Source: Escherichia coli (lineage in GTDB: Bacteria; Pseudomonadota; Gammaproteobacteria; Enterobacterales; Enterobacteriaceae). Taken from it: a DNA stretch of 64,000 nucleotides. Positions within the stretch are counted from its first letter, which is position 1; the number at the start of each line of letters is the position of its first letter. The stretch lies in NCBI RefSeq assembly GCF_003334785.1, contig NZ_QOWV01000009.1. The stretch is one strand, 5' to 3'. Below the pieces are notes generated by a model, which worked only from the letters and a program-made list of their open reading frames with translations, ran no database searches and had not been told where the DNA came from. Positions 3,063 to 50,905 of the stretch are shown here, piece after piece. The translations under genes and the position numbers were made by a program.

Positions 3063-3144
3063 AGAGCTCTCTCTTAGTTTAATTTCCGCCAGGTAATCAG
3101 ATGACACGACTGTGCTTCACGCCATCTATTAACATGTACGTCAG

Positions 3145-3176
3145 TATATGGGGATGTTTCCCCCACATTCAACGCC
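3145..3176 (-). promoter_or_regulatory. lon sigma-32 (heat-shock) promoter
   Basis: Minus strand reads GGCGTTGAAT (-35-like, consensus CTTGAA) ... CCCCATATA (-10, consensus CCCCATNT) with ~14-bp spacing, ~85 nt upstream of the lon ATG. Confidence 0.7.
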
Positions 3177-3249
3177 GAGAATAGAGGAAAAATTAAAGGG
3201 GAGATAAAATCCCCCCTTTTTGGTTAACTAATTGTATGGGAATGGTTAA

Positions 3250-44889: not shown

Positions 44890-44997
44890 GCTCGTCGCAC
44901 ATATCTTCAGGTTATTGATTTCCGTGGCGCAGAAAAAAGCAAATGGCACATCTGTTTGGGTATAATCGCGCCCATGCTTTTTCGCCAGGGAACCGTT

Positions 44998-46200
44998 ATG
45001 CGCATCCTTCACACCTCAGACTGGCATCTCGGCCAGAACTTCTACAGTAAAAGCCGCGAAGCTGAACATCAGGCTTTTCTTGACTGGCTGCTGGAGACAG
45101 CACAAACCCATCAGGTGGATGCGATTATTGTTGCCGGTGATGTTTTCGATACCGGCTCGCCGCCCAGTTACGCCCGCACGTTATACAACCGTTTTGTTGT
45201 CAATTTACAGCAAACTGGCTGTCATCTGGTGGTACTGGCAGGAAACCATGACTCGGTCGCCACGCTGAATGAATCGCGCGATATCATGGCGTTCCTCAAT
45301 ACTACCGTGGTCGCCAGCGCCGGACATGCGCCGCAAATCTTGCCTCGTCGCGACGGGACGCCAGGCGCAGTGCTGTGCCCCATTCCGTTTTTACGTCCGC
45401 GTGACATTATTACCAGCCAGGCGGGGCTTAACGGTATTGAAAAACAGCAGCATTTACTGGCAGCGATTACCGATTATTACCAACAACACTATGCCGATGC
45501 CTGCAAACTGCGCGGCGATCAGCCTCTGCCCATCATCGCCACGGGACATTTAACGACCGTGGGGGCCAGTAAAAGTGACGCCGTGCGTGACATTTATATT
45601 GGCACGCTGGACGCGTTTCCGGCACAAAACTTTCCACCAGCCGACTACATCGCGCTCGGGCATATTCACCGCGCACAGATTATTGGCGGCATGGAACATG
45701 TTCGCTATTGCGGCTCCCCCATTCCACTGAGTTTTGATGAATGCGGTAAGAGTAAATATGTCCATCTGGTGACATTTTCAAACGGCAAATTAGAGAGCGT
45801 GGAAAACCTGAACGTACCGGTAACGCAACCCATGGCAGTGCTGAAAGGCGATCTGGCGTCGATTACCGCACAGCTGGAACAGTGGCGCGATGTATCGCAG
45901 GAGCCACCTGTCTGGCTGGATATCGAAATCACTACTGATGAGTATCTGCATGATATTCAGCGCAAAATCCAGGCATTAACCGAATCATTGCCTGTCGAAG
46001 TATTGCTGGTACGTCGGAGTCGTGAACAGCGCGAGCGTGTGTTAGCCAGCCAACAGCGTGAAACCCTCAGCGAACTCAGCGTCGAAGAGGTGTTCAATCG
46101 CCGTCTGGCACTGGAAGAACTGGATGAATCGCAGCAGCAACGTCTGCAGCATCTTTTCACCACGACGTTGCATACCCTCGCCGGAGAACACGAAGCATGA
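44998..46200 (+). CDS. sbcD: SbcD nuclease subunit of SbcCD (Mre11 homolog, 400 aa)
   Basis: ORF track 44956..46200 begins at a TTG; start placed at ATG 44998 giving [30 protein letters not shown]... (calcineurin-like phosphoesterase motifs DWHLG, GNHD). Confidence 0.93.
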
Positions 46201-49200
46201 AAATTCTCAGCCTGCGCCTGAAAAACCTGAACTCATTAAAAGGCGAATGGAAGATTGATTTCACCCGCGAGCCGTTCGCCAGCAACGGGCTGTTTGCTAT
46301 TACCGGCCCAACAGGTGCGGGGAAAACCACCCTGCTGGACGCCATTTGTCTGGCGCTGTATCACGAAACTCCGCGTCTCTCTAACGTTTCACAATCGCAA
46401 AATGATCTCATGACCCGCGATACCGCCGAATGTCTGGCGGAGGTGGAGTTTGAAGTGAAAGGTGAAGCGTACCGTGCATTCTGGAGCCAGAATCGGGCGC
46501 GTAACCAACCCGACGGTAATTTGCAGGTGCCACGCGTAGAGCTGGCGCGCTGCGCCGACGGCAAAATTCTCGCCGACAAAGTGAAAGATAAGCTGGAACT
46601 GACAGCGACGTTAACCGGGCTGGATTACGGGCGCTTCACCCGTTCGATGCTGCTTTCGCAGGGGCAATTTGCTGCCTTCCTGAATGCCAAACCCAAAGAA
46701 CGCGCGGAATTGCTCGAGGAGTTAACCGGCACTGAAATCTACGGGCAAATCTCGGCGATGGTTTTTGAGCAGCACAAATCGGCCCGCACAGAGCTGGAGA
46801 AGCTGCAAGCGCAGGCCAGCGGCGTCACGTTGCTCACGCCGGAACAAGTGCAATCGCTGACAGCGAGTTTGCAGGTACTTACTGACGAAGAAAAACAGTT
46901 AATTACCGCGCAGCAGCAAGAACAACAATCGCTAAACTGGTTAACGCGTCAGGACGAATTGCAGCAAGAAGCCAGCCGCCGTCAGCAGGCCTTGCAACAG
47001 GCGTTAGCCGAAGAAGAAAAAGCGCAACCTCAACTGGCGGCGCTTAGTCTGGCACAACCGGCACGAAATCTTCGTCCACACTGGGAACGCATCGCAGAAC
47101 ACAGCGCGGCGCTGGCGCATATTCGCCAGCAGATTGAAGAAGTAAATACTCGCTTACAGAGCACAATGGCGCTTCGCGCGAGCATTCGCCACCACGCGGC
47201 GAAGCAGTCAGCAGAATTACAGCAGCAGCAACAAAGCCTGAATACCTGGTTACAGGAACACGACCGCTTCCGTCAGTGGAACAACGAACCGGCGGGTTGG
47301 CGTGCGCAGTTCTCCCAACAAACCAGCGATCGCGAGCATCTGCGGCAATGGCAGCAACAGTTAACCCATGCTGAGCAAAAACTTAATGCGCTTGCGGCGA
47401 TCACGTTGACGTTAACCGCCGATGAAGTTGCTACCGCCCTGGCGCAACATGCTGAGCAACGCCCACTGCGTCAGCACCTGGTCGCGCTGCATGGACAGAT
47501 TGTTCCCCAACAAAAACGTCTGGCGCAGTTACAGGTCGCTATCCAGAATGTCACGCAAGAACAGACGCAACGTAACGCCGCACTTAACGAAATGCGCCAG
47601 CGTTATAAAGAAAAGACGCAGCAACTTGCCGATGTGAAAACCATTTGCGAGCAGGAAGCGCGCATCAAAACGCTGGAAGCTCAACGTGCACAGTTACAGG
47701 CGGGTCAGCCTTGCCCACTTTGTGGTTCCACCAGCCACCCGGCGGTCGAGGCGTATCAGGCGCTGGAGCCTGGCGTTAATCAGTCTCGATTACTGGCGCT
47801 GGAAAACGAAGTTAAAAAGCTCGGTGAAGAAGGTGCGACGCTACGTGGGCAACTGGACGCCATAACAAAGCAGCTTCAGCGTGATGAAAACGAAGCGCAA
47901 AGCCTCCGACAAGATGAGCAAGCACTTACTCAACAATGGCAAGCCGTCACGGCCAGCCTCAATATCACCTTGCAGCCACTGGACGATATTCAACCGTGGC
48001 TGGATGCACAAGATGAGCACGAACGCCAGCTGCGGTTACTCAGCCAACGGCATGAATTACAAGGGCAGATTGCCGCGCATAATCAGCAAATTATCCAGTA
48101 TCAACAGCAAATTGAACAACGCCAGCAACTACTTTTAACGACATTGACGGGTTATGCACTGACATTGCCACAGGAAGATGAAGAAGAGAGCTGGTTGGCG
48201 ACACGTCAGCAAGAAGCGCAGAGCTGGCAGCAACGCCAGAACGAATTAACCGCGCTGCAAAACCGTATTCAGCAGCTGACGCCGATTCTGGAAACGTTGC
48301 CGCAAAGTGATGAACTCCCGCACTGCGAAGAAACTGTGGTATTGGAAAACTGGCGGCAGGTACATGAACAATGTCTCGCATTACACAGCCAGCAGCAGAC
48401 GTTACAGCAACAGGATGTTCTGGCGGCGCAAAGTCTGCAAAAAGCCCAGGCGCAGTTTGACACCGCGCTACAGGCCAGCGTCTTTGACGATCAGCAGGCG
48501 TTCCTTGCGGCGCTAATGGATGAACAAACACTAACGCAGCTGGAACAGCTCAAGCAGAATCTGGAAAACCAGCGCCGTCAGGCGCAAACTCTGGTCACTC
48601 AGACAGCAGAAACGCTGGCACAGCATCAACAACACCGACCTGACGACGGGTTGGCTCTCACTGTGACGGTGGAGCAGATTCAGCAAGAGTTAGCGCAAAC
48701 TCACCAAAAGTTGCGTGAAAACACCACGAGTCAAGGCGAGATTCGCCAGCAGCTGAAGCAGGATGCAGATAACCGTCAGCAACAACAAACCTTAATGCAG
48801 CAAATTGCTCAAATGACGCAGCAGGTTGAGGACTGGGGATATCTGAATTCGCTAATAGGTTCCAAAGAGGGCGATAAATTCCGCAAGTTTGCCCAGGGGC
48901 TGACGCTGGATAATTTAGTCCATCTCGCTAATCAGCAACTTACCCGGCTGCACGGGCGCTATCTGTTACAGCGCAAAGCCAGCGAGGCGCTGGAAGTCGA
49001 GGTTGTTGATACCTGGCAGGCAGATGCGGTACGCGATACCCGTACCCTTTCCGGCGGCGAAAGTTTCCTCGTTAGTCTGGCGCTGGCGCTGGCGCTTTCG
49101 GATCTGGTCAGCCATAAAACACGTATTGACTCGCTGTTCCTTGATGAAGGTTTTGGCACGCTGGATAGCGAAACGCTGGATACCGCCCTTGATGCGCTGG

Positions 49201-49343
49201 ATGCCCTGAACGCCAGTGGCAAAACCATCGGTGTGATTAGCCACGTAGAAGCGATGAAAGAGCGTATTCCGGTGCAGATCAAAGTGAAAAAGATCAACGG
49301 CCTGGGCTACAGCAAACTGGAAAGTACGTTTGCAGTGAAATAA
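46197..49343 (+). CDS. sbcC: SbcC ATPase subunit of SbcCD (Rad50/SMC-like, 1048 aa)
   Basis: ORF track 1048 aa; N-terminal Walker [10 protein letters not shown], long Q/E/L-rich coiled coil, central CPLCGS zinc-hook-like motif, C-terminal signature [18 protein letters not shown] and Walker B LFLDEGFG; ATGA overlap with sbcD stop. Confidence 0.96.
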
Positions 49344-49468
49344 CTATTCAGCAGGATAATGAATACAGAGGGGCGAATTATCTCTTGGCCTTGCTGGTCG
49401 TTATCCTGCAAGCTATCACTTTATTGGCTACGGTGATTGGTAGCCGTTCTGGTGGTTGTGATGGTGGT

Positions 49469-50680: not shown

Positions 50681-50905
50681 TGCCGGATGCGGCGTGAACG
50701 CCTTATCCGCCCTACGCGGTTCTGGCACATTTTGCAGGCCTGATAAGACGCGGCAAGCGTCGCATCAGGCATCGGAGCACTTATTGCCGGATGCGGCGTG
50801 AACGCCTTATCCGGCCTACGGTTCTGGCACCTTTTGTAGGCCTGATAAGACGCGGCAAGCGTCGCATCAGGCCTGATAAGACGCGGCAAGCGTCGCATCA
50901 GGCAT
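50681..50905. repeat. BIME cluster (five REP units) between convergent araJ and mak
   Basis: Alternating units TGCCGGATGCGGCGTGAACGCCTTATCCG(C/G)CCTAC and AGGCCTGATAAGACGCGGCAAGCGTCGCATCAGGC; ~100-bp unit tandemly duplicated, last REP present twice in a row. Confidence 0.9.

Follow-up and report, generated by a model that had tools for sequence, protein, structure and literature searches.

The single CxxC motif of Escherichia coli SbcC lies at the apex of its coiled-coil arm, consistent with a Rad50-type zinc hook

The zinc hook is central to the mechanism of Mre11-Rad50 complexes in all domains of life. In the bacterial Rad50-type protein SbcC, a CxxC zinc hook has been described at the apex of the coiled coil (PMC2610378, PMC12663957, PMC7752040), and SbcC has been named a "CxxC SMC" (structural maintenance of chromosomes) protein (PMC12663957). 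Atomic force microscopy at high speed (HS-AFM) visualized, in purified SbcCD, dimers of E. coli SbcC linked midway along a contour of ~90 nm, corresponding to two arms, and this junction was assigned to the hook (PMC6969161; bioRxiv 10.64898/2026.07.21.739852). The human RAD50 hook has been described as a constitutive tip-to-tip dimerisation module, and E. coli SbcCD was found to be similar in the same HS-AFM study (PMC6969161). The zinc hook of E. coli SbcC is already known. Here, we analyze the sbcC gene found in a 64,000-nucleotide stretch of E. coli DNA (assembly GCF_003334785.1, contig NZ_QOWV01000009.1), referred to as the window, for which a preliminary description had reported a zinc-hook-like Cys-Pro-x-Cys motif at the midpoint of the SbcC coiled coil. 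That description had further called the arrangement established for the family, in agreement with the literature (PMC2610378, PMC12663957, PMC6969161, PMC7752040).

Positions 46197..49343 of the window encode E. coli SbcC, the ATPase of the SbcCD (Mre11-Rad50) nuclease. The encoded protein is 100% identical over residues 1-1048 to chain C of PDB entry 6S6V, and all 1048 residues are likewise identical to the "Nuclease SbcCD subunit C" of 6S85, 7YZO, 7YZP and 7Z03. Against the NCBIfam SbcC equivalog NF007600 (curated cutoff 750) the protein reaches 1933.7 bits, and against TIGR00618, a second SbcC family model (cutoff 478.5), 1456 bits. Pfam identifies AAA_23 at residues 5-206 (E = 3.5e-28) and SbcC_Walker_B at residues 931-1002 (E = 5.2e-13), with the helical arm (residues 181-887) located between these two head halves, and the C-terminal head matches the Rad50 head structures 3QF7 and 3THO in a PDB sequence search. 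A gene encoding an Mre11/SbcD-type nuclease partner is found directly upstream. The gene and its parts are organized as follows:

46197..49343, plus strand: sbcC, Rad50-type ATP-binding cassette (ABC) ATPase with a coiled-coil insert, 1048 amino acids (aa) plus stop (PDB identity, NF007600)
46197..46736, plus strand: N-terminal half of the ATPase head, residues 1-180, Walker A region (Pfam AAA_23; beta/alpha in the full-length model)
46737..47687, plus strand: outgoing (N-terminal) arm of the coiled coil, residues 181-497 (AlphaFold2 helices)
47685..47756, plus strand: extended hook signature R497-x2-L500-x2-G-x2-C506-P-L-C509-G510-S-x-x-H514-P515-x-[IV]-x2-Y520 (position counts, n = 149 sequences)
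47688..47774, plus strand: hook segment, residues 498-526 (helix interruption, Pro/Gly cluster, conservation)
47712..47723, plus strand: Cys506-Pro507-Leu508-Cys509, CxxC motif of the putative zinc hook (direct translation, conservation)
47775..48857, plus strand: returning (C-terminal) arm of the coiled coil, residues 527-887 (AlphaFold2 helices)
48858..49340, plus strand: C-terminal half of the ATPase head, residues 888-1048, with signature motif and Walker B (Pfam SbcC_Walker_B; 3QF7, 3THO)

CPLC is the sole CxxC of SbcC, a protein with eight cysteines, and lies at 0.484 of the protein length and ~46% along the helical arm region 181-887 as delimited in a full-length AlphaFold2 model. The preliminary placement "about halfway" through a "Q/E/L-rich" region thus describes the protein correctly, its composition being 15.0% Q, 13.8% L, 10.7% A and 8.4% E. 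The 22-residue peptide quoted there matches SbcC residues 499-520 exactly (nucleotides 47691..47756). The interval given for it, 47701-47740, does contain the motif, but starts two nucleotides out of frame (codons begin at 47703) and covers only 12 residues of the peptide. A CxxC could also occur by chance in such a long protein and have no function of its own, and 5.2% of 200,000 shuffles of the SbcC sequence do contain one somewhere. However, a CxxC at most 25 residues from the centre is found in only 0.23% of shuffles, and one reading CPxC in 0.12%.

The distribution of the motif among homologues also argues against coincidence. A HMMER scan of 1.84 billion cluster representatives returned 33,601 homologues at E <= 0.001, roughly 14,600 of them at E <= 1e-30, and the best 150 (38-75% identity) were examined. 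A central CxxC is present in 148 of these 150, at a relative position of 0.45-0.505 in proteins of 1006-1295 aa, and is spelled CPLC in 130 of the 148. Both C506 and C509 are 100% conserved in every homologue with a central CxxC. In a full-length alignment of 99 sequences, the stretch from residue 187 to 887 contains no invariant columns other than L500, C506, C509, G510 and H514, and mean column conservation reaches 0.70 at residues 501-520 compared with ~0.3 in the flanking coil. Judged by these alignments, the CxxC motif is an invariant island within poorly conserved coil. A tblastn search of plasmid records supplied eight more distant SbcD-linked homologues, spread over six phyla: Bacteroidota, Bacillota (two), Campylobacterota, Actinomycetota (two), Rhodothermota and Alphaproteobacteria. 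Each of these eight proteins has a single CxxC, at a relative position of 0.47-0.51 when the two pieces of one split gene are taken together. Retention of both cysteines in the near and distant sets, in a coil that is otherwise so variable, rules out a chance CxxC, to which we give practically no credence; in addition, one exception among the near homologues, the truncated protein P0002 described below, lies at a locus where sbcD is broken too.

The location of the CxxC at the apex of the coiled coil is supported by arm lengths, paired insertions and a predicted loop, all of which agree. Among the homologues, the lengths of the stretches before and after the motif co-vary (r = 0.83), the C-terminal side being longer by 33 +/- 15 residues. 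E. coli SbcC is among the shortest members of the group: of the 149 sequences in which a central CxxC is found, 104 are at least 1200 aa long. Its shortness stems from the absence of two mirror-image pairs of segments from both arms. In the longer homologues, these ~170 extra residues appear as mirror-image insertion pairs about the motif: an inner pair of ~34.3 aa at 105 residues before C506 and ~34.6 aa at 106 residues after C509, and an outer pair of ~50 aa at 175 residues before and ~42 aa at 190 residues after the motif. In total, 85.1 aa are inserted on the N-terminal and 84.2 aa on the C-terminal side. An antiparallel coiled coil that folds back at the CxxC requires such pairing, and this evidence is independent of any structure predictor.

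Structural modeling places the motif in the same position. An AlphaFold2 model of the fragment comprising residues 416-601, with a predicted local distance difference test score (pLDDT) of 93.5 and a predicted template modelling score (pTM) of 0.79, consists of a helix at 417-498, a non-helical stretch at 499-516 that holds CPLC, a one-turn helix at 517-520 and a second long helix at 526-587. CPLC is thus located within the loop between the two long helices of an antiparallel hairpin. A motif lying away from the apex in a structural model had been named at the outset as the observation that would speak against a hook, and the proposal survives this check. The full-length AlphaFold2 model was used for helix boundaries only, yielding helices at residues 181-208, 215-275, 277-291, 293-354, 356-361, 364-398, 408-492 and 494-497 in the outgoing arm and at 527-587, 599-652, 660-699, 713-759, 766-772, 776-812 and 825-887 in the returning arm. 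Between them, the hook segment 498-526 is where the helices have their largest central interruption and where Pro and Gly residues lie closest together in the arm region (G503, P505, P507, G510, P515, P525 and G526); across the AlphaFold2 models it is non-helical at 498-516 and 521-526, on either side of the one-turn helix. A home-made heptad-periodicity score also has its minimum at ~495-515, but is noisy and the secondary structure of the models was therefore relied on.

The spelling C-P-x-C is also that of the active site of several thiol-disulfide oxidoreductases, and CPLC fits it. The two cysteines could accordingly be imagined to act as a redox-active dithiol/disulfide of the thioredoxin, glutaredoxin or DsbA kind and not as metal ligands. 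This explanation is excluded because of the lack of a thioredoxin fold and the coiled-coil setting, and we regard it as exceedingly improbable: no thioredoxin-fold family is found among the Pfam matches of SbcC, and the motif is flanked by long antiparallel coiled-coil helices with no beta-alpha-beta unit. Further, SbcC is cytoplasmic, and the equivalent position of Rad50 binds zinc in 1L8D and 5GOX (PMC9569753).

Based on the above, the SbcC chain runs out of the head's N-terminal half in one long helix, reverses direction at the Pro/Gly-rich segment 498-526 and comes back as a second long helix antiparallel to the first, placing the C-terminal half of the head beside the N-terminal half. Cys506-Pro-Leu-Cys509 is located in the reversal segment, at the arm tip farthest from the head. 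The arm comprises ~300-360 residues per antiparallel strand and has two invariant cysteines at its tip. By analogy with solved Rad50 hooks and in line with the literature, a single Zn2+ ion would be bound tetrahedrally by four cysteines, two contributed by each SbcC chain of a pair, so that zinc may join two SbcC arms tip to tip. The resulting SbcC2D2 complex would be joined at both ends, with arms that could open as a ring or zip up as a rod during clamping of a DNA end by the head and cutting by SbcD. Taken together, we consider it very probable that SbcC forms an antiparallel arm with an apical CxxC acting as an inter-chain zinc hook, where zinc binding and dimerisation are proposed by analogy. 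The original zinc-hook-like reading of the motif is supported by conservation, the structural model and the mirror-symmetric arm lengths.

A number of observations weigh against assigning the SbcC segment to the Rad50 hooks. The full-length monomer model has a pTM of only 0.47 and a pLDDT of 53-62 at the hook. A Pfam scan of SbcC does not return Rad50_zn_hook even at E <= 10, nor anything else between the head halves. Searching all PDB chains with SbcC residues 450-584 (phmmer) or with a profile of 63 hook sequences (hmmsearch) yields SbcC itself and generic coiled coils, and no Rad50 hook. Similarly, a Foldseek search with the hook model returns generic hairpins and no match at E <= 0.001, with human 5GOX_A in 17th place (E = 0.19, template modelling score 0.33). 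PDB sequence searches identify full-length SbcC entries only and no chain that corresponds to a bacterial SbcC hook alone. It should be noted that coils are reported to be poorly resolved in the full-length SbcC entries (bioRxiv 10.1101/2020.06.24.160820); a review reports that the structure of the E. coli hook has been determined (PMC7752040), which could not be confirmed from the PDB sequence searches. Finally, the hook loop of SbcC is longer and more asymmetric than its archaeal counterpart, with eight residues before and 17 after the CxxC. The alignment with Rad50 hook regions proposed in the preliminary description accordingly fails beyond the C-P-[LV]-C-G core, with no sequence match in Pfam or the PDB. 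As a result of the null searches, hook homology beyond the CxxC core is not demonstrable by sequence, and membership of SbcC in the zinc-hook class is based on motif, position, architecture, conservation and the SbcD partner, not on similarity to a hook profile.

The closest structurally characterized hooks illustrate both the likeness and the divergence. The hook peptides of Pyrococcus furiosus and human Rad50, checked against the PDB, correspond to 1L8D_A residues 46-69 and 6ZFF_A residues 64-87 for P. furiosus, and to residues 679-705 of the 1312-residue human RAD50 (5GOX_A residues 99-125). All share a mid-protein C-P-[LV]-C core that is followed by Gly in E. coli and P. furiosus. For P. 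furiosus Rad50, whose open form is found in 1L8D and rod form in 6ZFF, the sequence likeness to SbcC is confined to this five-residue core, with none detectable outside it, while the adjacent gene for the partner nuclease is a further shared feature. In contrast to the archaeal hook, SbcC has a one-turn helix (517-520) within its longer asymmetric loop and the signature R-x2-L ... CPLCGS-x2-HP ... Y. Human RAD50 has CPVC at residues 681-684, a relative position of 0.52 compared with 0.48 in SbcC. Unlike SbcC, it has neither a Gly after the second Cys nor a His-Pro, and its longer arm contains extra dimer interfaces down the rod (PMC9569753).

Two further groups of proteins resemble SbcC in overall organization. 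The RloC anticodon nuclease and the long LmuB proteins of Lamassu systems have, like SbcC, a split ABC ATPase head, a coiled-coil insert and a central CxxC (PMC2610378, PMC12663957). They differ in their partners and outputs, namely a tRNA nuclease domain or antiphage effectors, whereas SbcC is partnered with SbcD and has exactly one CxxC; some LmuB clades contain zero or two CxxC motifs (PMC12663957). The SMC hinge of MukB, Smc, cohesin and condensin has an analogous role, mediating dimerisation where an antiparallel coiled-coil arm ends in its tip, and the human Rad50 hook has been shown to be interchangeable with an SMC hinge (PMC6969161). However, the SbcC hook is a loop of ~29 residues with two cysteines, while the hinge folds into a globular, metal-free domain exceeding 100 residues.

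Besides the cysteines, His514-Pro515 (window 47736-47741, inside the extended signature) stands out, with P515 being >90% conserved next to the invariant H514 of the 99-sequence alignment. CP[VLF]CGSxxHP is found in six of the eight distant homologues, from Bacteroidota, Bacillota, Campylobacterota, Rhodothermota and Alphaproteobacteria. The two actinobacterial homologues read CPVCEQ and CPTCQR and have no His-Pro, which is also absent from the P. furiosus and human Rad50 hooks. On these sequence comparisons, most bacterial SbcC hooks share a larger module, R-x2-L-x2-G-x2-C-P-[LV]-C-G-S-x2-H-P-x-[IV]-x2-Y, instead of a bare CxxC. Its near-invariant His514-Pro515 might be involved in metal binding or in switching between open and rod forms, although we consider such a role unlikely. 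If true, bacterial hooks would differ in mechanism from the Rad50 hook, as a variant of it.

A stricter version of this idea holds that His514, perhaps helped by Pro515, joins Cys506 and Cys509 in binding the metal or switches in and out of its coordination sphere. The site would then differ from a plain four-Cys intermolecular site; its metal could be bound by a single chain, or its geometry could shift as the arms pass between open and rod states. The degree of conservation of both residues would fit such a variant site, as would the recurrence of the motif across five bacterial groups, its absence from the P. furiosus and human hooks and the two actinobacterial ones examined, and the 17 non-helical residues that follow the CxxC in place of the short archaeal turn. 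However, a conserved His-Pro is equally well explained as a structural cap or a residue packing the loop. Actinobacterial SbcC and Rad50, which are without His-Pro, keep the CxxC at the same position, and the cysteines therefore suffice for a hook. Nor is the histidine mentioned in the literature searched: a search on a conserved hook histidine returned nothing relevant, its "conserved histidine" match being SbcD H84. A variant metal site is thus very unlikely, and we favor the plain inter-chain zinc hook formed by the cysteines.

Two of the near homologues depart from the conserved arrangement. P0002 (Logan SRR23193148, L010 1801-5094) is 697 aa long, 75% identical to E. coli SbcC and missing residues ~235-575, the hook included. 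Its locus shows the phoB/sbcDC/araJ arrangement found in E. coli, with sbcD split into open reading frames (ORFs) of 246 and 146 aa. Because the adjacent sbcD is split, the locus is, as read from its sequence, an enterobacterial sbcDC operon in decay. P0076 (GCA_964601895.1, L011 3001-6471) is a protein of 1156 aa with no CxxC, in which the whole hook signature is gone, the aligned region reading ...HHAQSQLTQQNRRLTEQVH... It adjoins an apparently intact sbcD of 418 aa on a 317-kb contig. P0076 appears to be a rare, intact and hook-less SbcC, and its locus may encode a naturally hook-less SbcCD. Two loci of the distant set also deserve mention. On the Rhizobium indicum plasmid pPR12A203 (L008 5073-9486), the sbcDC pair is located beside two Ser/Thr protein kinase genes, a PP2C phosphatase gene and a Shedu SduA-domain gene, surroundings that resemble a defence island. 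In Aerococcus tenax (L007 3944-7065), the sbcC homologue is annotated as two coding sequences (CDS) of 821 aa and 185 aa, with the CxxC in the first piece, probably reflecting a frameshift or pseudogene.

The partner gene is located immediately upstream of sbcC in the window:

44998..46200, plus strand: sbcD, Mre11-type nuclease subunit, 400 aa (NCBIfam NF008206 equivalog; RefSeq annotation of an identical locus agrees)

The upstream ORF scores 640.7 bits against the SbcD equivalog NF008206 (cutoff 450). In the program-made ORF list, sbcD opens at TTG 44956, while annotation and profile support ATG 44998 and the 400-aa protein, the differing stretch being 44956-44997. The sbcD stop and the sbcC start overlap by four nucleotides (ATGA, window 46197-46200), which suggests translational coupling of the SbcD and SbcC subunits. 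The gene order malZ-proY-brnQ-phoR-phoB / sbcD-sbcC-araJ / mak / rdgC corresponds to the E. coli chromosomal context. Of 5426 complete E. coli genomes, 5425 contain the 4.5-kb sbcDC region, with identities of 94-100%; the remaining genome has no sbcDC match at all. In one E. coli isolate (NZ_OW968124.1), the match to the sbcDC region (window 44900-49400) falls into two pieces separated by an IS4-family transposase, and the annotation there divides sbcD into two CDS; this looks like an IS4 insertion disrupting sbcD. Elsewhere in the window, two RNAs are detected above the Rfam gathering score: the small RNA sraA at 3134-3229 on the plus strand (106.7 bits) and the nucleoid-associated non-coding RNA naRNA4 at 50737-50816 on the minus strand (79.8 bits), the latter just downstream of araJ.

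By linking the tips of two SbcC arms, the hook would enable SbcCD to encircle and clamp DNA ends and hairpins before cutting. For this window, the analysis adds nothing new and only confirms how a well-studied E. coli gene is annotated in textbooks. Of marginal use is the wider signature of bacterial hooks that includes the conserved His-Pro. Along with the rare hook-less homologue that adjoins an intact SbcD, this signature offers cheap targets for mutagenesis of the differences between bacterial and Rad50 hooks.

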